In this document: positions 686 through 56,026 of the stretch, one piece after another
How the letters are laid out: the number at the start of each line of letters is the position of its first letter
Position numbering within the stretch: the first letter of the stretch is position 1
Source: Amoebidium appalachense
Lineage: Eukaryota > Protista > Ichthyosporea
Assembly (NCBI GenBank): GCA_963693365.1
Contig: CAVNZM010000013.1
Span: 5,446,640 to 5,510,639, forward strand
Reading direction: 5' to 3'
Length of the DNA stretch: 64,000 nt
Position numbers and translations under genes: made by a program
Notes under the pieces: generated by a model
What the model was told of the DNA's origin: nothing
Databases searched by the model: none
What the model saw: only the letters and a program-made list of their open reading frames with translations

Positions 686-943
686 TCATAACTCGATGGT
701 ATGCTCCTTGTCACTGCAGGCCACACACATCAACCTCTTGTTTCTCACGACCATAGGCTTCCCAGCCAGCATGGCACTGCATGCCACACATCTGAAATGT
801 GGGGGATGGAACCGCATCCCCTCTGTTTCCAGATAGCTGCCTTCAAGGGGTCTCTGGCATGCTTCACACAGCTGCCCTGTAACACGCCAATAGTGCACCT
901 GTGTGTGTGTGTGGGGGGGGGGGGGGGGGGGGGGGGGGGGGTG

Positions 944-978
<35 letters not shown>

Positions 979-1324
979 CCGGGAGAGGGCGGGGGAGGGG
1001 GGTTGGGGAGGGGGGAGATATCGGTGGGAAGAGGTGAGAAGGGGATATCTTTGAAAATGGGAGACTTTGTGTTGATTATGCAGCATTTCGAATTCGAAAT
1101 ACAGGATTCACGAGATGCAAAATGGAAATGGAGTGCTGAAAGGGAAAGAAATGAACAGACACACCGGAGGACGAGGAGGGGGAAGAAGGGGAGGAAGGGG
1201 GGGGGGGGGGGGGGGGGGGAAGGGGGAAGAGGGAAAACGGGGGGGGGGGGGGGGGGGGGGGCTAGAGAGAGCAAGAGAGACAGCCTTTTTTTTTTTTTTT
1301 TTTTTTTTTGAGGGGAGGGGCGGG

Positions 1325-1360
<36 letters not shown>

Positions 1361-1791
1361 AGGGGGTGGGGGGAGGGGGGGTATGTGGGTGTATGGGCAG
1401 TCAGAGATACACCCATGGATGGTTGTGCGAGACTGAGAGTATGTGGGCTCAGATGGGGACGGGCGGACGATGGTTGGTTGGGATCAGCCGTGTGAATATG
1501 CGAAAAGCCCTGCGCAAGTGCAGAGCGAGTCGATAGGAGGTGGGATTTGTGGGGGGGGAGGGGGGGGAGGGGGGAAGGGGGAGGGGGGGGAGGTGGGGGG
1601 GGGAGATCTAGAGGGAGGGGTAAGAAAGTGTTAAGGAGTTAGAAGTACTGTGACACTGGCTACGGACAACACAATGCCGATTGGGGAAAAAAAAAAAAAA
1701 AAAGCAGACCCAAGAGTTAACGGAGCAACAAGGAAGCCGGTGGAGGAGGGAGCGGGTGGTGTGTGGGTGTGTGAGTTTTTTTTTTTTTTTT

Positions 1792-1833
<42 letters not shown>

Positions 1834-2291
1834 GGGGGGGGATGCTGGACGTATAACGGTCACTAACCTCGCAATAAGCCTTCCCCTTATGCTCCCAAAA
1901 GTCACCGGTAGGGAACTTCTGATCGCACCCACTCTCCATGCATCCGAAGCAGTCCTGGTGCCAGCTCATATCACACGCCTCGAGTACTTCCCCATCCTCT
2001 ACCGCCTTTCCACAGCCACCACACCTAACACCAAATAGCTGCTCGTAGTCTCTCTTGCAGTAGGCCTTGCCCCCGTAGTTGTAGAAGCACTCGTCTGTGT
2101 GCGTGTGTGTGTTTGCGTGTGTGTGTGTGGGGGGGGGGGGGGGGGGGGGAGGGGGGAGGGGGGCTATTTGTGAGTGTGTGTGTGGGCAGGGGGAGGGGGG
2201 AGGGGGGGTGTTTGTGCGTGTGTGTGTGTGTGTGTGTGGGTGGGTGGGGGGAGGGAGGGGGAGGAGTGGTGTTTGTTTTTGTGTGGGCAGA

Positions 2292-2329
<38 letters not shown>

Positions 2330-2347
2330 GTTTGTGTGTGTATATGC

Positions 2348-2416
<69 letters not shown>

Positions 2417-3342
2417 CGCGTGTGTGTTTGTGTGTATTTGTGTGTGTTTGGAAGTTGGGGGTTGGGGAAAGGTGGGGAGGAAGAGGGCGGGGGGGGGGGG
2501 GGGGGGGGGGGGAGAGAGAGAGGGGTTGTGCAGGTGAAGGAGGAAGGGGGGGGTGGGGGGGAGAGGTTGTTGTGAGATGGGACGAAGGAGGGGAAAGCAG
2601 TGGGGAGGGGGGGGGGGGGGGGGGAGAAGCGGGGGGGGGGGGGGGAGGAGAGAGTTGGGGGGAAGAGGGAGGAAGATAATGGGAGGGGGGAAGGAGTGAA
2701 GAGAGAAGGTTTCAAGAAGGGGAATGTATTCCATGGTGTATTCGTGTGGGAGCGAAGAAGTGGGGAGACTGGGGAGACGGAGAAGGTTGGGGGGAGGGGG
2801 AGGGGAGGGGGGCTTGGGTAGAATACGTTGTGATGCAGAGCATGAAATAAGCGTTCACGAGGGACAACACAATGCATATTTTGCAAAGACGAGCAGACCG
2901 TTAGAGTACCGTCATATAGATGGTCCATCCTGGGGTGGAGATCAAGCTATAGAGGGAGAGGAAGGGTGAGAGGGTGGAAGGGTGGGGGGGGGGGGTAGAA
3001 GTGGAGGGTTGAAAGAGAGGGAGAGTCGTATGGAGTGGTGGTGAGTGTTTAGGTTCAGAACTTCAGGGGGGGTCGGGGAAGCGAAAAGAGGAAATAGAAG
3101 GCAATTGAAAATGAGAAGAGGGGGAGGAGGGAGTATGGATTTACGCACCCGTTTCAGCGTGCCTGCCACAGTGAGCGCAGAAGAAGCACTCCCTGTGCCA
3201 GTAGCCCCCCAGTGCCGTGAGGGCATCCTCCCCAGTGTTCTTGTTGCAGTACATGCACGGTGGGCCCTTGGGTTCCGTGGCTCTGTGTGGGGTTAACAAG
3301 GTGTGTGTTATGTGTTGGTTACCTCTTTTGCTCTGTAGTTGT

Positions 3343-3410
<68 letters not shown>

Positions 3411-5083
3411 ATGTGTGCGCGCGCGCAAGGTTATTTGTTGCTTATCTCTTGTTCCGCGTGTGTGTTTTACATGTGCGTGGTCCGACTCCTTTGGTGTGTG
3501 GCTCTGTATGTGTTTAGAGGTTTTGTGTGTTACATATAGCTCATCTCGTTCAACTCTTGCCCCGCGGTCTTTGTATGTGTTTTGAGCAACATGTATGTCA
3601 TGTTGTTCATTTTGAGTTGATATTGCGGTAGTTTTGAAGACTAATGCATTCAGTTGCGGTACGTGCATGCTTGACCCTTGTCTTCCGTGGCTCCTTGTGT
3701 GTGTGAAATAGCACAGTTTCTTGTGTTGAGGAACGTGTGTGAATCTTTGTGTCGTGGTAGGGCTGATGATTTGGGTGTTGGCGGTGAGACAGACGTCGGG
3801 TAAGGGCAGAAGGTGCAAGAGTGCAGGACCAGTTTTCCCCTTTTGCGGTGGGGGAGAGGGGAGGGGAGGGATGTAGTGAAAGGTTGGTGGAGCAAGTTAG
3901 AGAAAGATGTCAGGAGGAGGTCGGGTGGGGTTGGTGGGTGTGTATGTGTGTGTGTGTGTTGGGGGGGGATGGGGGGGGGTGGGGGAACGGGGGGGGTAGC
4001 TAATAAGGCAAGATGACAGATCTTCCGTTACAGGATTGTTGAGAGTGGGAGAACATACTCGAGTGTGAGTGCTCTAGGGGTAGGGCTGGACCTCTCCACA
4101 GCCAGTTTAACCCTATCCACCAACTCCTGGTCCCCACAGCTGTCCACACGCACACCAAGGCTGGACAGGCTGCTGCGTAGATCGGCAACGGAGGAGCAGT
4201 TGGGGTCGGAACGGGAGGAGGTTTGGTCCAAATCTTGCGAATTTGGAGAGAGTTTCTGTAACGGGAAATGTATGTTATTAGTTTTGATAGAGCTAGTGGT
4301 GTGTATGTGTGCTTACACGTGCGAAAGGGAAGTGCAGGGAGGAGGGGGGGGGGAGGGGGTGGGGCTGCATGGGCACGTGCATATGCTGAGGTGCTTAGGG
4401 CTGGGGAGGGGGAAATGGCAACTTATTATATGTACTTGTAATAGTGGTCATGGGTGGTGGGAAGGGAAGAGGGAGAGGGGGCGGAATGGGGAGGAAGGGG
4501 GAGGGGGGCGGGGAAGGGGGGGGGGGGGGGGGGGGGGAATGCACCGCACCGGCCACAAGTGTTTGCATGGAATCTCGTTCCTTATATAAACTTCACAGAT
4601 GCGTGACAAACACAATGCGGGGAAATTGGGGTCACTTTATCATTCATTCTGTTTCATAAGCGTGCTCAGGCCATGTTGCACTCATGTAAACCCAGAATGA
4701 CCAGGTTCAGAAACCGTAGACCATACCTGCCACTCCACTGCGGAGGTGACCGGCGGATCTTCAACCTGCTTATTCTCAGCTGGTGGCGCGTTCATTTCAG
4801 CAGCCTTTTGTGAAGATGCTGTGCTAACCTTTTTCTCCAACGCCTTTTTTGTTTTTTCTGGAGACTGCTTGCCAATAGCTTCATCCTGTTTCTGGACTGG
4901 TTTTGTACCATGTTCGCTCACAGTTATGGTAATAGGAGCATGGATCTTTTCCTTTACTTCTGGTGTGCTTGGCTTTACCACCTCCATTCCGCTCTTAGCA
5001 TCTTTTCCATCGAGAGAGTTAGCCGAACCACGGCGTTTTGCCTTGTTTGACTTCCCCTTCTTGAAAAAGCTAAAGAGGCCCAT
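686..5083 (-). CDS. Triple LIM-domain protein (paxillin/zyxin-like C-terminus), ~375 aa; exons 5083-4727, 4255-4059, 3282-3149, 2094-1868, 898-686
   Basis: All four introns are GT-AG and phases match (0,2,1,0). The spliced product has three LIM zinc fingers: [42 protein letters not shown] and [20 protein letters not shown]. The N-terminus [18 protein letters not shown] is followed by a low-complexity K/E/S/P region. Confidence 0.9.
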
Positions 5084-15134: not shown

Positions 15135-16979
15135 ATGTCCACATCATCATCGTCGTCCTCGGCTCCTCTTCGGCGGTATTCAACGGGTGGGTCATCTCTC
15201 GACCGAGCAACTGCCCTGCTCAAGTACTCTTGGGTTCCCAAGCTCAAGCGTGCAGCCCTAAGCATCATGCTGGCAGGGTTTGCCTTGTATCTTCTAATGA
15301 CAAGCACACATAACCCTCAGGCTGCCCACCCAGGCATGCCTGCACGCAATCTTGCATCAGCCGTGCAGGAAAACATTGATGCTGTAACCAAGCACATTGC
15401 TGGTGGTCGTTCAAACCCGCTGGCTGCACTACCACCAAGACCGAAAACGGTGCATCACTTGCAGCAAGCACACCAAATCAGGAGTGATAAAAGGCTGCCT
15501 TTGGAAAAATACTCACCTGAAAACTACGTTTACCCATACACGGAACCCCAGAAGCGCGCAAATGCGGCTATTGTCCTCTTGGCACGGGAATCAGATCTGG
15601 GCGGGCTAGGGCCTGTTTTGGAGAGCTTTGAACGTAGATTCAACAGGTAAACATACCCATGCCCGATACAAGATGCAGCTTCTCTCTATGGGTTTTGTGA
15701 GTTGCACCGTTTTTAGAGCTATTGCACGCTATCACATGTCGCTTAAAAAGGTCTACAATAGTGGAGGTGGAACAACATACATGCATTCCATACTGGACAT
15801 TGTGTAGCGTAGCGCAGATGGCTGGGCAGTAGATGCCACCAATGACAAGGAAGAACGGCGTTCAACTTACAGAAAAGGTAGCACAATACAATAGTTTGCG
15901 GTGCAGCCTTGGCGGAATTTGTAATTTTGCATTCCTAATTTTCAACGAGCACAAAACCTCGCTCGAAATCTCGCCACATTGCTCGCTCAAACTGCAGGCA
16001 TGTGCATGTTATGTATGCCCCCAGCAACGGCGCAGGCAAAACCATAACCGTAATATCGTCTTCAATACCCAATATTTTATCTGTTTTTCCTACTTGTATT
16101 TTCTCCAGCCGTGTTTGGGTGACTGCAGTACCATCCCCCCGGGAGCAGTACCACTAAATCAGCCATACAGGCTGTGCCCCTGACCAAACCCCATTTTTAA
16201 TCTTAACATTAAAACATTATAATTTAATGGCATTACGATTGTACTTAACAACGGACCACCCACCACCAGGAAGTACAAGTACCCGTACGTATTCTTCAAC
16301 AACGACGAATTTTCAGACACGTTCAAGCGGACGGTGGAGTCTATGGTGTCCAGCAACATCACCTGGGCAAAGGTCACCCCAGACCTGTGGGAGCCCCCCA
16401 GCCACATCGATATGGTTAAGGTGGGTACTGCTAGAGTGTATTCTGTTGACTAGTGTATCAACCCTTCCCTCCACCCCCCCCCCCCTCCCCCCCCTCCCCC
16501 ATCCATCCCCCCCTCCCCACCCACTCCCCTTTGATTTCGGGGACCACCCCGTTTCACAACAAATATACCTTCCCCCTTCCCCCCTCGTGAATGGGCACAA
16601 TGAAACCCTTTCCCCTCCCTCCCCTCCCCCCTCCCCCCCCCCCCCCCCACCTCCCTGAGGATGGGCTCTGCTTATGACGCATACTGTGCGCATGGCTGAT
16701 GTTGCATACTTGAATGTTTGCCTTTGCATGTGTCCTTCGTGTATGCGTACTTCGTACCGTGTTCCGCATTCAACCCCCCCCCCCCCCCCCCCCCAGGCTC
16801 TGCTTATTATGCATACTCTTTATGTATGGCTTGCATTCTGCATCGTGTTATCCGTTTGTTCTTGTGTACTTCGTACTTTTTGACGCATTCAAACCCCCCC
16901 CCCACCCCACTTCCCTTCCCCCACCTCAAAAAAGACTGCATCAGCGTGTTTTGGTGACACAAGCATAAAGACACGCCGT

Positions 16980-17012
<33 letters not shown>

Positions 17013-17020
17013 AGCGCGCG

Positions 17021-17108
<88 letters not shown>

Positions 17109-18178
17109 ATCTCGACACAACTGCATACACCACTTGGATTTTAGTGAAACCCTCCCTCCCCAACCCCCTCCTCGCCCACCACCACCACAGTCACCCACAC
17201 ACAACGCTCCCCCCCCCCCCCCCCCCATCCCCCCCCCCTTCTGCCCCCTCTCCCGTCGTGTTTCATCTCCTCAGTGACATTTACGTGAGGGGTTCTAATA
17301 ATAGGGGGGTTTTAAACAGACGGAGGAAAAGATGAGAGAGATGGTTGCAAACAACGTCATCTACGGTGGGAGTCTTTCCTACCGCAAAATGTGCAGGTAG
17401 GCATGCTATGTTACAAGTTTCATGCATGTTATAGGTGGTATTCTCAAGCACCCCTCGATGCAGAAGTCCCGCTACTTCCCGTTTGTAGTACACAAACATG
17501 TAAATGACTTCAAAATGTGTGGAAATTAAACTCCACGAGACAATTGCAGAAACAAGCCTGATTCAACACCTCTCTTTATCATTTTAGAATTAAACTATAA
17601 AGTGTGCTTGCAGATTGGTCACACCGTGTAGTCTCTCTCCCGTGCATGCTGTCAAAGCACCCCGAAATTAGAAAGCAAACCCAAGCATTACGTAATTTTC
17701 GTTCGCAGTACACGTAAAGGTCAATCACATAAGTACTTGAACACAGCTTGTGGATCTTGGCAAAATCAGCACCCCTTGAAGAACATAATCAAAGCATGGA
17801 GAACATAGATTTAACACGGGTTACTATGTAGGTTCTTCTCCGGCACGCTGTTCAAGCGCCCTGAGCTTGAGATGAAGAATCACGACCACTTTCCATTCAT
17901 TGTACACGTAGAAGACTCACAATGTGTAGAATGTATACTCCAAAACAATTTACTTAAATTCAAAGCAAAGCCCCTTCAAATGTACTTGTTTTCTTGTTTG
18001 TACACATTAATTTTGATGGCAACATGTGGTTACTGTGTAGGTTTTTCTCCGGGATGCTTTTCAAGCACCCTGAGATGAAGAAGTACGACTACTACTGGCG
18101 CCTGGACAGCGGAAACGTGAAGTTCCACTGTGATGTGGACTTTGACCCCTTTGTCTACATGCAGGTGTGTGTGTGTGT

Positions 18179-18271
<93 letters not shown>

Positions 18272-18648
18272 TGTGTGTGTGAGTGGGTGGGTGGGTGTGT
18301 GTTTGTTTGTGTGGTTGTGGAGGGGGGGAGGGGTGTGTGTGTGTGTGTGTATGCACGCGCGGGTGTGTGGGTGGGTGGTGGGTGGATGGGCGTATATGCA
18401 TGTATGTGCGTATGCTCGCGGCCTTTGTGTGTGTGCGTGTGTGTGCGTGTATTGTGATGGCTGGTTGGCTGGATGCACACAGCCATATGATTGTGCGAAC
18501 GAGAGTTTTCAGCTCTATAGACAGCGCAAAAATGCTAACATCCATATTTCCAGGAACGTGACATGGTGTACGGGTTCACCATTGCCCTTCACGAATACAT
18601 GGCTACAATCCCCACCCTCTGGAACACAACCATGAAGTAGGTCAAGCT

Positions 18649-18690
<42 letters not shown>

Positions 18691-21293
18691 CCCGAAAAAA
18701 AACAAAAAAAAAAAACACACCCAACCACCAGCCCCCTTGCCGTCATCCCCCCTCCCCCTTCCGCCCCCTCCCCCTCTCCCGCCCCTTCGTCCCTCTTTGG
18801 ATCACATGTTTGGTAGTCAAGCAACCAGCTCACATACCCCACCACGCACCCACACACCATTCTCACCCCCCCCCCCCCCCTCCCCCTCCTTTCCCCTCCC
18901 TCCTCCCTCTCTCACCCTCCCCCTCCCCCCCACCCCCCCACACCCTCTCCCCCACCATCGCCACCACCACAACCCTACCCCTCACCTTCCCACCACCCAC
19001 ACACCGCTTTTCTTCCTCGTACCCACAGATACATGCAGGAGCGCGGTGGCAGTGTCCCTGGCTCATGGATGAATTATTTCACCGACGACGGAGTAAACTA
19101 CAACGGACACCACTTCTGGTCAAACTTTGAAATCGGGAGCGTGAAGTTCTTCTCAGGGAAGGAATACCAAGATTACTTTGACTTTCTAGACCGTTCGGGA
19201 GGGTTCTTTTACGAGCGGTGGGGGGACGCACCCGTGCATTCATTGGGTGTTGGGCTATATGCCCGGCACGATCAGATCCATTGGTTCAATGAGATTGGGT
19301 ACTATCATGGACCCTGGGCTCACTGCCCTACCCAGCCACAACTGCTGAAGAAGTGTGACTGTCAGAAGCAAAGACAGGTCGATGATATACGTGTGTTTCC
19401 CTCCCCCGCTCCTTCCCTCCCTCCCCTCTTCCCCCCTCCCTCCTCCTCCCCCTCCTCCTCCTCTTCCCCCTTCCCCCCCCCCCCCCCCCCCCCCGCGGCG
19501 ACCTCTCCCTTGCCCATCTTCCCCGTGGCCTCTTCTGCCACCCCACCTCCTGCCCCAAACTCTCATTCACTCACCTAGACCGGGTCTAAGCGTTCCACCC
19601 TCTCCCTCCCCCAACCCTTTTTCCCTGGTGCATGTGTTTTGCATGTTGGTTTGTGCAAACAAAACACACATCGTGGTTTCGGCATGTAGGTCTTGTACCG
19701 TGCACCATGTTACAGCTTACAGTGTGCTTTTTTTTTTTTACTCCCCCCACCCCTTTCTTACCACTGGCCAATCCTTCCTCCCCCCTCCCCCCCCCCCCCC
19801 CCCCCCCCCGGCGCGGTCCTCTGTGTATCCTGTGTCATCATTTTTTACTGTGGACACCCATTCTAACACCCCTGCCACCATCCAGCGTTTTCCAGCATGT
19901 ACGACTTCCACATGCTTCCAGCAAAGACCATGGCTGAAAACCGCAGGGAGATGCTTGGGGCCGTGGACCGGCTGATGGTTGAAATTCAGCCGAAGGACCC
20001 TACTATCTGCCAGCCGGCCATAAAGGTACCCCCCCTCCCCATTTTCTTTTGTCATTCCATTGTCTCCCCCTTTCGCACGTACATCCTCTCCCTGCTGTGT
20101 GGCCAATGGTCCCCCCCCCCCCCCCCCATCCCTTCCTTCTCTCCCCCCCCCCCCCCCCCCCAATCCACATGCACACACAAACATTCACACGAGGCCTACA
20201 AATACAACACACACACGTAGAAAAGTATACACGAACACGAACACACCAACTCTTGCCACGTGTCGTCTGCCCAGACATGAACCCCTTATGCCACCAGCCC
20301 ATATGTTTTCATTCCATGAGGGAAATCCGCTTACCAACACCGCGCTTGTTTGCAGGTATCTGATGGTGGGGAATGGTTTGTTTGTGACAAGCCGGCCTTG
20401 TCCGAAATCTGCACCGTGTACTCTTTCAGTGTCAGGTACCCACTTCATAACACCCCCCCCCCCCCCCCCCCGGGGCCCCGCCTCCCTCACCATTTTATAT
20501 GCATCAATACATGCACACACGGGCGCACTCACGTGTGAGTGTGCTCAGGCACGTGCACTGCACAAACGCCTACACATGCAACACACACACGTACGTGCAT
20601 GCACTGACACAAGTAGGGGCACTTACACACACGTACATGGATTTCATACACACACATTCACACAGGCAACACTTTTCACCATTTCCATGGCGTATATATG
20701 CCTCCCATCGCCCTGCTGGCAAACAATACTGGGTGGGTTATTTTATTCCTTAAAACCCGCACCAAATATAGCACCATAACTTCTATGTCTGCATCTTGCA
20801 GCATAAATTCATTAAGGGGTCACAGTATATTATTGGCTTTGCAAATATATGGCTCGCTATCCATTTCCAGAAATGCTGCGATTGCCATATAAAGGAACCT
20901 AGTATCAATCTAGATATAGACTTAATATAAGCCTATTTCAACTTTCACTTTTTGCACCGCCACCAACACTGCCACATTACCCACACAGGGGTGCATCCGA
21001 ACAGTTGAGTTTTGAGCTCGAGGCACAGAAGAAGGGCTGCACGGTCTACTATTTCAACCAGGTAAACTATGAACCCCCCCCCCCCCCCCCCTCCCCCAAC
21101 CCACCCACCCCATTTTCCACCCACCCCCTTCCCCACCCATACTCAGTGTTGTGCTCGTGGTTTGCGCTCTGTATCGTGTTGTCCGTTGTTTATGTGTACT
21201 TCGTAGAGCGCTTTCAAACTCTCCCCCCCTCTTTCCCCTTCGTTTCCTTTTTATCTCTCCCTCATTTTTTTTCTTTCCCTTTTTTTTTCCTTT

Positions 21294-21338
<45 letters not shown>

Positions 21339-22447
21339 AGGAAGGGGCCAGGTGAGAGGGGGAAGGGGAAGGAGAGGGAGGGGGAGAAGCAAACCTGCAT
21401 TGTGTTGTAAGTGGTGACTATGGGAGTACTTTGAAACGCATTGTAAAGCCCCTATTTCCCCACGCGATGTGCTCTGCTTATGTATCGTTTTGTCTGTCCG
21501 TCAATTCCCGATTTTTCATTTGTATTCGCATTAGGTCATCTGTTATCACACCGTCCTCCATATGTCTACCACGCTCTAACCTACCCCCTCCGCTCTCCCC
21601 CTACCCTTCCCTCCCCATCCCTCCCCCCCCCCCTCTCTCGCCCCCTTCCCCCTCCCCCCTCCCCCCCCCCCCCCCCCGCACCCCGCAACATCCACCCACC
21701 TGGGAATTTTTACCTCCCTTCCCCCAACACACACACACACACACGCACACGCGCGCATACACACACGCAGACACCTCCCCTTCCCTCCCCCCTCCCCCTG
21801 CCCGCCCCTTCCCTCCCCTCCCCTTCCCCCTCTCCCTCCCCCCCACTCTTCCCCTCCTGCCCCCGTTCCCCTTTCCCCCGTTCCCCCTTCCCCCCGCTCT
21901 TTCCCTCTCGTCCCACTCCCCTCCCTCCCGTCCCCCCCCCTCCCTTCCCCCCCGTCCCCTCCCTCACACACGCACACACAATCAACAGTGGCGCAACCCC
22001 CACGACATGCTCTCCATCATCAACGAGTATGACCGTCAGGTGCTGTACGGTCTGCACTGGCACCAGTACACACTGAGTGACGTGGATGCTGATGGGCTCA
22101 GGAGGGACTCGGATACGGCTATGGCTATAAACGAGAGAAGGTAAAAGAGTCTTCTGTTCATGACTGTCCAGAACATAGAATTATTGCATGTTTGACTAAT
22201 AAATACTTATGATCTCCATTTTGCACGCCTACACATGTATGTGTTCCCCAACGTACACACGTGGATGTGCACAGATACAGACACATGCACACATACACCA
22301 TGCCACGACACACCACACATGCACTTGAATAAAAAAGTACACGTACTAACGAACACACACACGAACACACGAACACACGAACACGAATATACACACGAAT
22401 GTACACACGAGTGCGCACACACACGCACACACGAACACAAACACACG

Positions 22448-22521
<74 letters not shown>

Positions 22522-23399
22522 TACACACACACGCCCACGCACACAAACACACACACATACAGAGAGAGACAGACTTATTGGCACCCTCAAATGCATCCTT
22601 GTTTTTAGAAATGTTGCAAATAGTGTGTTGCGTCGTTGATCAGTGTTCAAGTTTGCAGCCGCTAACAGCCCCCTCCCCCTCCCCCCCCCTCCCCTACCCC
22701 TGTGCTTTCAGATAAGTTGGCACGTGCATAAAAACACCCGTGTACACTCTCTATGGTCTATAACTCACACACACAAACACGCACACACACACGCACGTAC
22801 ACGTACACGTACACATGCACAAACGCACACACGTACACACACACACACACACATACCTATACATCCAGCACACGCACACACATCCACGCACGTACTTGTC
22901 CACGTCACACAAACACACACCCACACACATACACCTGCACGTACACGCGCACGTACACACACACACGTACAGGCTGGCGACACTCATGGACATGTTTGGG
23001 CACGGAGACAGCGTCTTAGACGTGGTCAAGTTTGATGTGGAGGGGGACGAATGGCTGGTGCTGACGGACCTGGCAGCCAGCGGGGTGCTTGGGAGGGTCA
23101 AGCATCTTATGTTTGAGGTGCATCTTAGGAAGGAGAAGCTGTGGAAATATCCCGAACACCTCCCCGTGGTATGTGCGCCTTTTTATATATATACCCCCCC
23201 CCCCTTCCCCCCCCCCCCCCCTCCCCCCCACCCCCTCCCGCCCCTCGGATTTCACATGCAAAGGTGATTGGGTAGGAACTTGTACAGTGAATGCCTAAAC
23301 GTCTGGAAAAACCACCCATGGCCCCCTTCTTTTCCTTTTCTCCCCTTCCTCTACGACTTTTCCCTCACCGTACCTCTTGCGCCTCTTTTTGGCGTGTTT

Positions 23400-23463
<64 letters not shown>

Positions 23464-23510
23464 GTGTGTTTGTGTTTTGAGGGCCGGGTGGGGCTGGGGG
23501 GGGGGGGGGA

Positions 23511-23544
<34 letters not shown>

Positions 23545-23725
23545 CGCGGATGTGTGCATGGCAAATCTAACAGGGAAACAACCACAGGTTTTGAGTATGC
23601 TCAGTTCGCAGCAGTTTGAACTGGTGTTTTCCAGTCAGAACCCTTACAGCACCGTGGAGGATGTGGGTGGAAGGCAGCTACCGTGTTGCTTTAAGCTGGT
23701 CTATAGAAACAGGGCTTACCTTTAA
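15135..23725 (+). CDS. GT15 (Kre2/Mnt1/Ktr-type) alpha-1,2-mannosyltransferase fused to a C-terminal Methyltransf_22/METTL24-like SAM-dependent methyltransferase domain, ~695 aa; exons 15135-15646, 16270-16420, 17320-17396, 18041-18164, 18554-18636, 19029-19390, 19886-20025, 20356-20435, 20989-21061, 21989-22140, 22973-23168, 23588-23725
   Basis: Eleven GT-AG introns with continuous phase give 2088 nt with no internal stop. One N-terminal TM helix ([16 protein letters not shown]) indicates a type II Golgi protein. GT15 motifs: [96 protein letters not shown]. Methyltransferase motifs: [48 protein letters not shown], and terminal CCFKLVYRN. Confidence 0.88.
17430..17891 (+). repeat. Three decayed copies of the acceptor plus 5' part of GT15 exon 4, inside intron 3
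   Basis: The AAGC(A/G)C anchor occurs at 17446, 17655, 17854 and in the real exon at 18063 (spacing 209/199/209). The copy at 17832 reads [20 protein letters not shown] versus the real [18 protein letters not shown] and keeps the ttact(a/g)tgtag acceptor. Confidence 0.75.
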
Positions 23726-51931: not shown

Positions 51932-53485
51932 TCACGAGGACGATTTTTTCTCCGCACCCTTGTCATCTACCCTAATAATCTCAGGAGGAACCCAAGTACC
52001 CGTGAACACGTCCAACTTAGCCCAATAAATACGGAGCATCAAGTTAAAGGGGGCATCGGTAGGTGCAGGGAGCCAGTTTGACTTTTTTTCAGTCCCTGGG
52101 GACTCCTTCTGAACATAGATAGTGGTGCTTCCATCCACGTTCTCTTTAAGGGGGTCCCGGCCACCGATCGAATACTTGTTGAGCGGGTTGGGCAAAGTGT
52201 ACCCATCGGCATCGTAGAGGGTGAGAGACCAAAACCCTTTGCCTGGGGGCATACGTCCCTTGGGGAAAGTGATCGTGTACTTGAACTTTCCCTCGAGCGG
52301 GTTACCGGTAGAGTCGTCGTGCGCGGCGGGGTAGATGGCGTCTTCGATAACGTTTGTAGCGTGAAGGAAAACACCGATGGCTGCGCGCAGGCGATAGTTG
52401 GTGCCGAAGGAACCCAGCTGATCACGGCGGTAGTACCAACACTTGCTGCCGGCGGCAAAAGGGGCTTCGTGGTAGCTCAATGTGCGCTTAAGAACGTTAA
52501 CCTCCGACGAATTCATGACGCTGGTGAGTGCGTCAGCAACGACGTCACCGTTAGCATTAAGGCCCGCGAAGGGTTTTCCGTAGTGCAGACCAATCCGCCT
52601 CATGCGCTGAATTATGGGGTAGTCCATAACGTGGTGGGGGTGTGCGGTAGACAGCTTCATGGCGTACGTGAAGAATTGCTCGGCCGTCATGTTTGCAAGC
52701 TGCCGAGGTGGAGGGATGCGCATTTCGATGGTTGGGTTGGGGACGAAGTTGGTGACGGGCTCGGGTACATAGTCCATGCCAACCTCGACGTACTTGGAGA
52801 GGGGAATGGCCTTCAGCTGGTCCTGCAACTTGTGCACTGCATCATAATCCTCCTTGGTGCCGCTGGTGTAGATGCGGGGGATAAGCCATGCCATAGTAGT
52901 GCTGCAGTTGACCGTGTGATCTTTAAGCTCCTCCGGAAGGTCACCCGTCCAGCCGGGGGGGATGAGGACAACCTTTCCAGCCCCCTGACCAGTCGTGCGC
53001 GACCCCGGGGAGTGCTGCACGTCGGAGAACATGTCGTAGATGGGGAGCAGGAAGTACCGGTCGCCAAAATCAGGCCAGGCGCACACGTAGGGCTCCGTTA
53101 GGTGCACCCATGCTGAAGAGTAGATGGTGTCGTAGTTGGGCCGCACCACACGCTTGAACTCAGCTGCAGGGAAGGTGCGCAGGTGGACGAAACGGTTTGG
53201 GGGCCCCAGCCCGGGCAGGGTGCTGCCGTTGGAGTTGGTGAGCACAGCGCGGGTGACGTCAGTCAGCACCATGGGGAAGAAGTAGTTGTAGGCATCCAGC
53301 GCAAGGTTGTGTGCATCCTCTTTGGTGAGGTTGGCAGCAGCTGCAGCAGCTGGGGCGGCATCGGCAGTGCCTTTTGACTTGTCCGCATCCCTGACGGCTC
53401 TCCGCACAGCATGAAGGGGGTTGGCTTGGGCGAAGGTGCTCAGGCACAAGGCCGCAGCCGCGTAGACGGCGAGAGCGTACCGCAT
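51932..53485 (-). CDS. Secreted DUF1254 + DUF1214 domain protein (bacterial VPA0735-like family), 517 aa, intronless
   Basis: A single uninterrupted ORF. Signal peptide MRYALAVYAAAALCLSTFAQA. DUF1254 motif VVRPNYDTIYSSAWVHL..DRYFLLPIYDMF..PPGWTG. DUF1214 motifs AIYP..D..G.PL.G..KYTITFPKG..PP.KGFWSLTLYD and N.DGS.TIY....PG..K.SNWLPAP...FNLMLRIYW. Confidence 0.92.
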   Translation of the reverse strand: MRYALAVYAAAALCLSTFAQANPLHAVRRAVRDADKSKGTADAAPAAAAAANLTKEDAHNLALDAYNYFFPMVLTDVTRAVLTNSNGSTLPGLGPPNRFVHLRTFPAAEFKRVVRPNYDTIYSSAWVHLTEPYVCAWPDFGDRYFLLPIYDMFSDVQHSPGSRTTGQGAGKVVLIPPGWTGDLPEELKDHTVNCSTTMAWLIPRIYTSGTKEDYDAVHKLQDQLKAIPLSKYVEVGMDYVPEPVTNFVPNPTIEMRIPPPRQLANMTAEQFFTYAMKLSTAHPHHVMDYPIIQRMRRIGLHYGKPFAGLNANGDVVADALTSVMNSSEVNVLKRTLSYHEAPFAAGSKCWYYRRDQLGSFGTNYRLRAAIGVFLHATNVIEDAIYPAAHDDSTGNPLEGKFKYTITFPKGRMPPGKGFWSLTLYDADGYTLPNPLNKYSIGGRDPLKENVDGSTTIYVQKESPGTEKKSNWLPAPTDAPFNLMLRIYWAKLDVFTGTWVPPEIIRVDDKGAEKKSSS

Positions 53486-56026
53486 TTTGGACGGCGAGTG
53501 GTGGCGCTCGGAAGTTGCAGCTCTTGTGTGACGATCAGCGCGCTTGTGAACTCACTAGAAAACTGTTTGATTTCAGGAAACGTGCCGCTTTTTTATGGCC
53601 ACCGCTTGCACCATGACCATGATCAGATCTTTCACCGCCGAGCACTGGCCTGCACGGAGCTCACAGGCTCACACTGTCACACACGCCCACGTCAGGGCTT
53701 TTTCCCCCGTGAAACGATGCCGAGTATGTTCGGTTGATTCATTTGAAGTGGCCATCAGCTGTGGCCATCGATATCATGTTCAACTGCAGTGAGATGTTGA
53801 TATGCTGCACACGCACATGTGCATGTATGAGAATGACGCTGGGTTTTCTCGCTTCCGCGTTATCTTGAAAGCCAACCCAGGTAATTATCATGGTTTGTGG
53901 GCTGGTGCGATTTCCCAGTTTCGAATGATATCCGAACGCGTGGACCGTTGCGCTGAACTTCAAGTTCAACACAGTTTGTTTGTTCCGCGCCCTGAGCTCA
54001 GCCCGCGGAAACCTAGCCAGCTATTGGCTATTTGAAATGTGCTGAATCAGTAATTGATTGGCCAGCTCACCTCTACACCATTTTGATTGGTGCGGTTTGT
54101 TGTTGACCGAATTAGGCAGATGTCGCTCATTCCAATTGGAGCGCTGTCGTCACTGACTCACTGCTGAGTACTGGCACTGAGTCACTGACTGCTGAGTGTG
54201 CGAGCAGGGTGTGAAATTCATTTTTGGCTTGTGCCTATTTAGCAAGTTGGATGGCCCTAATAGAGCCAACACCGTTTTAGGAGGCAATTCTTTTAAATAT
54301 TTTAGCCTATGGTTGAAAAGTTGGTGAAAAAAGTTAGGGACACGTTTCGGAGTTTCTGAGGGACAATTCTGTGGCAATAAAACACCCCCTAATTTCACAG
54401 CCTGTGTGTGAGGCTCATAGTCATGCGTATGACTGCCTCACGATCATCGATGCAGGATTCATCTCCATCCTTCTTTCGGACGCACATGCAAGCCGAGGAG
54501 CCGGCCGCGGATATCGATGTTTTGGGATGACGGCTGCGCGGCACGGCGCACGCTGAGATATATTGCAATATGTAAGTGTAAATATCTTATTCCCTATATA
54601 TAGCTAGCCCCCCGAGCGAGCACGGCGCGCGAGCAGCATTCATCATGTGCCCATGGCCAGCTACAGGGGCCACTGGCCAGCTCAATTGATCGACGTTCTA
54701 GAAATATCATAGCCAAATGCATGCCCCGCACCCAGCCCGAATCCAAGGCCCGCTCAACTCATGATAGGCTCTGAATATATGGACTTCTTCCCTCTTCTTC
54801 CCGAAGTCACGCATCCGAAGTGTAAAAAATCAAAGTCACATATGCATCGCGTGTTTGCACCTGCCACTTCGACTGCAGCTGTGGCCTCAGCCGCCGTATA
54901 TATGCATCCGTATAATAGATATATACATATCTATTTTTCAAGGGTATGCCATGGCGCCTGATCAGTCGCTTCGGAAGGAGAGTTTTGTCGATCAGCCATG
55001 AAAAATAAGAGCTATAGGTAGCTAGGCTCCAATTCAGTAGCAGGGTTTGCACATGCATGCCGCGGGCCTCCGACCCGGGCCCTACTAGTAGAGCTCGAGC
55101 AATTTATGATAATATTAGTACAGTACTATAGCTAGTGACTGTACTGAGATGTGGCGAGTTAGTCTTGTGTGGAAGCTCCTTTTATTATATTTCCGATATT
55201 TGTCATGAATATGTACAGCCGAATCAGTATTATGGCGGCGCGATAACATATGATCTCCGTGGGGGCCTGGGGGGGGGGGGGGGGGGGGGGGGGAGGGGGA
55301 GGGGGGCGGGGGGAGGGGGGGGTGGCCTAGATGATTGATCGATATCATGAGGCAATGTGATGATCGAATTACTAGGAATCTTTAATTCCGAGTCACTGTG
55401 GGCCGGGGGTTCCCCCCGGGGGGGGGGGGGGGGGGGGGGGCTGAGGAGGGGCGAAGGAGGGTAGTATCATTATAAAGCGGGAGAGGCCCGGGGGGAGGGG
55501 GGGGGGGGGGGGGGGGGGGCCACTGGCAGGGGGGATGCACATACATGCATGCATGACGTATTACATTGTATCATCAGGAGGGGGGAGGCCTAGCTGGGGT
55601 GGGGGAGAGGGGGGGGGGGGGGGGGGGGTAGGGGGGGGGGGGGGAGGAGGAGGGGGAGGAGGGAACGACTGGGCCATCCGGCGGTTAACGTTAGCGGTTC
55701 AGCTCCCAATTCGAAAGAGCTCCCCCCGGGCTGAGAATAGCTGAGTCCAAAATCGCACACAATGAGTGTGCGGTTGCTTTGTTTTGTTTTTGGTTGGACG
55801 TTCTCTTTGATGATTTTCTCTTTTCCTTCTTTTTTTTCGTTTCAACGATGTCTTTTAGTTGTAGGTTTGATGTAGTAGAACCTTTCTTCGTTTGACTCAA
55901 CCGTTTAGCCACTTTGAATTGGGTTAGTTTTTGGTTTTGTTAAGCCGCACGGACCACACACACACGCACACACACACACACACACAAGCGCACGCGCGCA
56001 TGCACGTACGCACGCGCGCGCGCGCG

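Follow-up and report, generated by a model that had tools for sequence, protein, structure and literature searches.

A GT15 glycosyltransferase joined to a Methyltransf_22-type domain in ichthyosporeans, a candidate for adding and O-methylating mannose

Can a single ichthyosporean protein both add a mannose and methylate it? The question is raised by a gene at positions 15135–23725 on the plus strand of a 64,000-nucleotide stretch of Amoebidium appalachense contig CAVNZM010000013.1 (the window, in whose numbering its features are given). An initial annotation had read the gene as a mannosyltransferase of family GT15 joined to a METTL24/Methyltransf_22-like domain, and had proposed an enzyme that extends mannans and caps them with methyl groups. 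The fusion is real and is one transcribed, spliced gene. Three residues on the predicted S-adenosylmethionine (SAM) side of the second domain are replaced, a caveat that was overlooked in the earlier reading and is the main result against it.

The first point is whether the gene is a single unit. Joining its 12 exons in phase, as had been proposed, gives a coding sequence of 2088 nucleotides (nt) with a single terminal stop and a product of 695 amino acids (aa); all 11 introns are GT..AG with consistent phases. The spliced model is identical at 695/695 residues (pairwise comparison) to P0121, a 695-aa EukProt protein from a transcriptome labelled Amoebidium parasiticum. Exons 6, 7, 8 and 9 abut directly, with no extra letters, in one contig of run X1 (3110 nt) and one of run X2 (1908 nt), so that junctions 19390/19886 and 20025/20356 are both joined in these contigs and no stop follows the GT15 domain, as had been claimed. 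These contigs span exons 6–9 and come, like run X3, which gave no contig matching the gene, from one sample whose RNA status is a software guess; within the introns, read depth is confined to matches of poly-C repeats and a single short piece from X2. That mis-splicing or the gene model has merged two neighbouring genes is very improbable. Nothing was found in its favour, and against it stand the identity to P0121, the splicing of exon 6 to exon 7 in contigs of two runs, the same architecture in three proteins of two other genera, and P0001, a transcriptome protein of the same cluster as P0121 that was retrieved with exon 6 and also contains both Pfam families. Transcripts that end after exon 6, with the methyltransferase exons on a separate mRNA, are refuted for the main transcript by P0121 and the X1 and X2 contigs; the contigs do not show RNA ends, and a minor GT15-only isoform is compatible with the data.

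Other isoforms do exist, since P0001, from the same transcriptome component as P0121, starts at M293 and lacks the anchor and half of the GT15 domain; it may arise by retention of intron 4 or skipping of exon 4. The X2 contig reaches 209 letters upstream of exon 6, corresponding to exons 5 and 4 plus two letters, a possible sign that the acceptor of exon 4 is a branch point in the assembly. Intron 3 contains a partial, decayed duplicate of exon 4, covering its acceptor and the 5′ end of its coding part (17819–17890, plus strand; 79% over 72 nt), which lies outside the 695-aa protein, and a weaker trace of it at 17441–17476 on the same strand.

Does the N-terminal part look like a working mannosyltransferase? 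Exon 1 (15135–15646; this and all other exons are on the plus strand) encodes a cytosolic tail, a signal anchor (aa 40–58, ~15252–15308), a stem and the start of the GT15 domain, which continues through exons 2 (16270–16420), 3 (17320–17396), 4 (18041–18164), 5 (18554–18636) and 6 (19029–19390). The anchor is a hydrophobic 19-mer at aa 40 (mean 1.72) that by hydropathy alone fits a type II topology, and no second hydrophobic segment comparable to it is present, in agreement with the earlier observation that the second domain lacks a signal peptide of its own. The GT15 profile PF01793 matches in order across exons 1–6 in an exon-wise scan (6/12 exons), and matches the whole protein at aa 124–411 with E 3.9e-99 and 332.5 bits against a curated cut-off of 25, covering profile positions 36–325 of 325, so the anchor, stem and complete GT15 domain of the initial annotation hold. 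Matches to the structures of Kre2p, Ktr4p and Aspergillus fumigatus Ktr4 range from E 7e-80 to 5e-69.

The Mn- and GDP-binding residues of this family are known from the Ktr4p structure (PMC4546622, section 13). Their counterparts, with equivalence inferred from motif spacing, are D269, H409, Y236, Y242, R151 and M245; the residues kept comprise R151, Y236, Y242 and M245 (the last three in exon 3), R267 (exon 4), and E350, R379, D382 and H409 (exon 6), among which E350, R379 and D382 are invariant in 113/113 aligned GT15 domains. The metal motif in exon 4, equivalent to EPD, reads R267-L-D269-S: D269 replaces the Mn-binding Glu, as it does in a Syssomonas GT15 protein, and the fusion proteins have D-S plus one inserted residue where E-P is usual (E in 108/113 domains). 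They also have His343 for a Cys seen in 107/113. These two clade-specific changes may tune the acceptor site, and from its family membership the domain is predicted to transfer alpha-1,2-mannose from GDP-mannose.

What, then, is the second domain? Exon 7 (19886–20025) contains the end of GT15, a short linker, and the first helix (aa 452–469) and Cys478 of a Methyltransf_22 domain. The earlier view of a distinct methyltransferase-fold domain is borne out; its start at 20356 is not, and with the domain beginning in exon 7 the linker is only ~10 residues. Exon 8 (20356–20435) encodes beta-1 and motif I (VYSFS), exon 9 (20989–21061) beta-2 and the post-I motif (FNQ), exon 10 (21989–22140) beta-3 and a hairpin insert, exon 11 (22973–23168) beta-4 with the post-II motif K604-x-D606-x-E608-G-x-E611 and beta-5 with E633-x-H635, and exon 12 (23588–23725) beta-6, beta-7 and the stop. 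As the initial annotation anticipated, the spliced protein matches Methyltransf_22 as well as Glyco_transf_15: PF13383 scores 23.3 bits on P0121 (aa 484–636), above the curated cut-off of 22.4, while the FkbM profiles fall below theirs (PF05050, 21.9 against 22.7; TIGR01444, 19.4 against 37.7). Exon 11 alone gives weak matches to FkbM and Methyltransf_22 profiles. PDB sequence searches with second-domain alignments gave one weak unrelated match each. The modelled domain has a seven-strand class I methyltransferase fold (predicted local distance difference test, pLDDT, 89.6; predicted template modelling score, pTM, 0.89), and its best VIA structure match is the FkbM protein 2py6 (Z 11.9, root-mean-square deviation 6.1, 199 aligned), the rows listed being methyltransferase-fold chains. 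A full-length model built from four sequences (pLDDT 40.5, pTM 0.35) was discarded.

The same architecture occurs in Creolimax (P0005, CFRG3693T1) and Ichthyophonus (P0004 and P0006), extending the fusion to three ichthyosporean genera and bearing on the question of taxonomic spread that accompanied its first description. PF13383 scores 47.4 bits on P0005 and 19.3 on P0006, and does not match P0004. Among these proteins and P0121 identities are 48–64% in GT15 and 29–43% in the second domain, which diverges faster. A Sphaeroforma fragment (SARC_12563) also carries the second domain. The other 116 of 120 GT15 matches listed (of 3918 in all) have no methyltransferase Pfam family. Word-index searches with the second domain matched only P0001 and P0005 and missed known members, and so do not bound the range of the fusion.

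In a FastTree phylogeny of 113 GT15 domains, which leaves out seven long matches and P0001, the four fusion domains form one clade (support 0.995) that adjoins a group containing the Syssomonas GT15, a microsporidian protein and five unnamed proteins (support 0.917). The Syssomonas protein ends after GT15. The simplest history would be that an inherited holozoan GT15 gained the second domain in ichthyosporeans. In the methyltransferase tree (176 domains) the five ichthyosporean domains group with support of 0.64 and no resolved sister, and no donor is therefore claimed.

Is a link between this methyltransferase family and glycosyltransferases seen elsewhere? A profile of the four fusion second domains found 3346 proteins, from which 148 new matches were taken; PF13383 was matched by all 50 of these that were scanned, and most of the near relatives that bear a name are METTL24-like proteins of molluscs, flatworms and hemichordates ('probable methyltransferase-like protein 24'). 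Among 147 relatives, which are the top of one profile search and not a census, six have at least 150 aa beyond their methyltransferase domains. Four of these extra segments are poor in hydrophobic residues and match no further Pfam family, and the two that look globular both have glycosyltransferase folds. One belongs to P0127, a 937-aa protein with two Methyltransf_22 domains followed by a divergent GT15 of a type found in giant-virus clusters. That assignment derives from an Atlas score of 0.97 with a TM-score of 0.74 and a weak hidden Markov model match (E 0.017 among 148), and in HH-suite comparisons with GT15 the C-terminal part of P0127 did no better than two of ten shuffles. Its reversed domain order and the position of its domains elsewhere in the tree point to a likely independent fusion. 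The other is the Symbiodinium pilosum 'mettl24' protein (P0283/P0268), in which a fucosyltransferase-type fold is joined to a Methyltransf_22 domain with intact motifs, a candidate enzyme for adding and methylating fucose. The Rosetta-stone link first proposed from the Amoebidium gene is strengthened by these two further independent fusions. An N-terminal hydrophobic segment is present in 104/132 full-looking relatives, at a threshold set by the analyst.

Two other loci touch the same families. A 704-aa open frame at L001:741–2855 (plus strand; also L002:2474–4054) has an intact Methyltransf_22 domain and a 350-aa C-terminal part that gave no Pfam, PDB or GT15 profile match; it appears GT-A-like by eye only and was left out of the fusion count. 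Overlapping GT2, GT32-like and FkbM-like open frames lie at L004:1480–3687 (plus strand).

These results suggest, with about an even chance of being right, a Golgi type II enzyme in which GT15 attaches an alpha-1,2-mannose and the METTL24-type domain next to it then O-methylates one of the hydroxyls on this new terminal residue. A location in the Golgi lumen is suggested by the signal anchor, sequons and conserved Cys residues. There, the GT15 domain would use GDP-mannose and hand its product to the adjoining domain, in which D606, E608, E633 and H635, with K604, may form a metal/sugar-diol site, a model that draws on metal-dependent O-methyltransferases. SAM would be bound through a remodelled pocket with Asn533 in place of Asp; methylation in the Golgi needs import of SAM (passages in bioRxiv 10.1101/2021.07.06.451061). 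As the likely outcome, glycoproteins of the wall or surface would carry short mannose chains with a methyl mark that may stop their extension. A methyl group at O-2 would keep the chain from growing further through alpha-1,2 linkages; alternatively, methylation at O-3 would be a finishing mark like the O-3 methyl group that Chlorella terminal mannoses carry (described in part of PMC6344472). A ruler-controlled polymer cap is not expected: a single 18-residue helix joins the two domains, with no coiled coil between them, and the extend-and-cap scheme with length control like that of WbdA/WbdD, part of the initial annotation, is therefore unsupported. The wider proposal is more tentative and held at somewhat less than even confidence: METTL24/Methyltransf_22 proteins may be the Golgi enzymes, so far missing, that O-methylate glycans in molluscs, worms, algae and protists, fused to glycosyltransferases at least three times independently, with the ichthyosporean fusion adding mannose and methyl-capping it via a remodelled SAM pocket. 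O-methylated glycans occur in molluscs and flatworms, from which most of the named near relatives come (parts of PMC7773692 and PMC6272458), and Caenorhabditis elegans clusters of glyco-genes hold putative methyltransferases whose family is unstated in PMC7614267, section 17.

Several observations weigh against methylation by the fused domain. In an alignment of the five ichthyosporean domains with 113 relatives, the motif I Gly (111/113 relatives) is Ser508, the ichthyosporean copies having S, G, F and T, with Creolimax the only one of four to retain Gly; the post-I Asp (110/113) is Asn533, the ichthyosporean domains having N, N, S, N and N and Asp in none of five; and the beta-3 Gly (100/113) is Thr562, with Gly again in none of five. 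All three are kept together in 99/113 relatives. S508 and N533 thus depart from the canonical motif I Gly and post-I acid for SAM binding, and motif I and post-I contain the residues described as critical for it in passages of PMC11514484. The two Ichthyophonus models share one end point, the E633 position, and lack the conserved His, beta-6 and beta-7, although this may reflect gene-model truncation or a missed last exon. Both methyltransferase domains of P0127 are degenerate on the SAM and substrate sides, so a loss of catalysis may tend to follow fusion to GT15. Although METTL24 is present in vertebrates, no methylation of monosaccharides has ever been detected in these animals according to parts of PMC6272458, and literature searches turned up neither a Methyltransf_22 member with a demonstrated substrate nor an ichthyosporean glycan analysis.

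The substrate side is different. K604, D606, E608, E611 and E633 are kept in 5/5 ichthyosporean domains and H635 in the 3/3 that reach that position, and the four conserved Cys and the K-x-D-x-E-G-x-E-W and E-x-H motifs are common to the domain and its METTL24/Methyltransf_22 relatives; post-II residues are described as substrate-binding in a portion of PMC11514484. Loss on one side with retention on the other also fits a GT15 enzyme whose second domain no longer methylates and instead, with its acceptor or metal site kept, acts as a module for sugar binding or regulation, gripping the mannan as it grows or determining which acceptor is used. The lengths of the pre-beta-1 and motif I loops, which vary among the ichthyosporean copies, the faster evolution of the second domain, the degenerate P0127 and the shortened Ichthyophonus models agree with this, and inactive seven-strand proteins such as SAMTOR are known (part of PMC11514484). 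We regard such a module as the main rival, a serious possibility that is nonetheless probably wrong. Among 160 other domains, 10 retain one or none of the three SAM-side residues and 9 of these 10 lose at least two of six post-II/beta-5 residues, which argues that the ichthyosporean pattern is not ordinary decay. In P0263, an unrelated stand-alone protein, this Ser/Asn pattern goes together with a complete set of the six post-II/beta-5 residues, suggesting a workable variant; the post-I change is a narrow one (Asn in 4/5 ichthyosporean domains), and Asn should still be able to hydrogen-bond ribose. Sequence alone does not tell an active, remodelled pocket from a module that only binds.

A third reading keeps the second domain active on another substrate (sugar, lipid or small molecule) or with a SAM-like donor, the fusion merely placing two Golgi steps together. 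The consistent alteration of the cofactor pocket would fit such a change, and the fold match reveals no substrate, as the 50 VIA rows listed span RNA, protein and small-molecule enzymes. METTL24 is given in part of PMC11514484 as an uncharacterised human enzyme of a family without a demonstrated substrate, and a methyltransferase-like fold can perform other chemistry, as in GT137 (passages in PMC11231755). We consider this reading unlikely, because the two partner domains identified among the sampled relatives are both glycosyltransferases and the linker is so short.

The neighbourhood of the gene adds no further glycan genes among the 139 scanned of 189 neighbouring open reading frames, and a scan of the window gave no Rfam match. 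An intronless 539-aa open frame on the minus strand (51935–53551) matches DUF1254 (E 3.6e-39) and DUF1214 (E 5.1e-34); the genome is intron-rich and the DUF1254/DUF1214 family is mostly bacterial, making this frame a candidate gene transfer. A multi-exon gene with at least three LIM domains lies at ~689–3896, also on the minus strand.

Passages on microalgae (PMC7773692, PMC6344472) and C. elegans (PMC7614267) state that the O-methylating enzymes of eukaryotic N- and O-glycans have yet to be identified, and where a review of ichthyosporeans touches on wall glycans, the relevant part mentions only chitin synthase (PMC11286789). Methylated glycans are targets of innate immunity and an obstacle to the production of therapeutic glycoproteins in algae (parts of PMC7773692, PMC6344472, PMC7614267 and PMC11514484, as a group). 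The fusion points to a candidate family and a candidate acceptor together, which reduces the question to one enzyme assay and one monosaccharide analysis, and it offers a testable way towards the methylating enzymes of animal and algal glycans. Should the second domain be inactive, it would still be an undescribed addition to a mannosyltransferase of fungal type in organisms closely related to animals. The better test objects would in that case be the proteins with intact motifs, namely the Symbiodinium fusion and the stand-alone proteins of molluscs.

How does the fusion compare with known systems? It shares a type II anchor, stem, full GT15 domain and metal/nucleotide residues with Kre2p/Mnt1p and Ktr4p of Saccharomyces cerevisiae (PDB 1s4n, 5a07) and with A. 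fumigatus Ktr4 (7boo; CAZy GT15), but adds a C-terminal methyltransferase-fold domain and differs at the E-P pair (D-S plus one residue) and at the Cys that His343 replaces. With METTL24/Methyltransf_22 proteins (PF13383), which lie near FkbM (PF05050; PDB 2py6), it has in common the seven-strand fold, the four Cys and the post-II and beta-5 motifs. Unlike METTL24, its domain sits behind a glycosyltransferase and has the motif I Gly, post-I Asp and beta-3 Gly replaced. Chlorovirus PBCV-1 A064R is also a single chain in which a glycosyltransferase and a sugar O-methyltransferase work on one glycan, but is viral and cytosolic, acts on rhamnose and is built from other families. WsaE of Geobacillus stearothermophilus likewise joins sugar addition (rhamnosyltransferases) and a 2-O-methyltransferase in one chain, as described in part of PMC2943079; it differs in being bacterial, cytosolic and rhamnose-specific, with an N-terminal methyltransferase and ATP-binding cassette (ABC) export, and its activity is demonstrated where that of the fusion is predicted. 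Escherichia coli O8/O9a WbdA–WbdD and Klebsiella O7 ORF6 couple glycan extension to a terminal methyl group (passages in PMC11231755), but these have polymerases, a coiled-coil ruler and, in O9a and O7, a kinase, none of which is seen in the fusion; WbdD is one of many class I folds matched by the second-domain model. No description of a GT15–Methyltransf_22 fusion was found in open-licence PMC and bioRxiv papers, in keeping with the initial annotation, whose author knew of no such architecture. Glycosyltransferase–methyltransferase fusions are already known in bacteria (WsaE, O7 ORF6), and the new element is the pairing of GT15 with Methyltransf_22.

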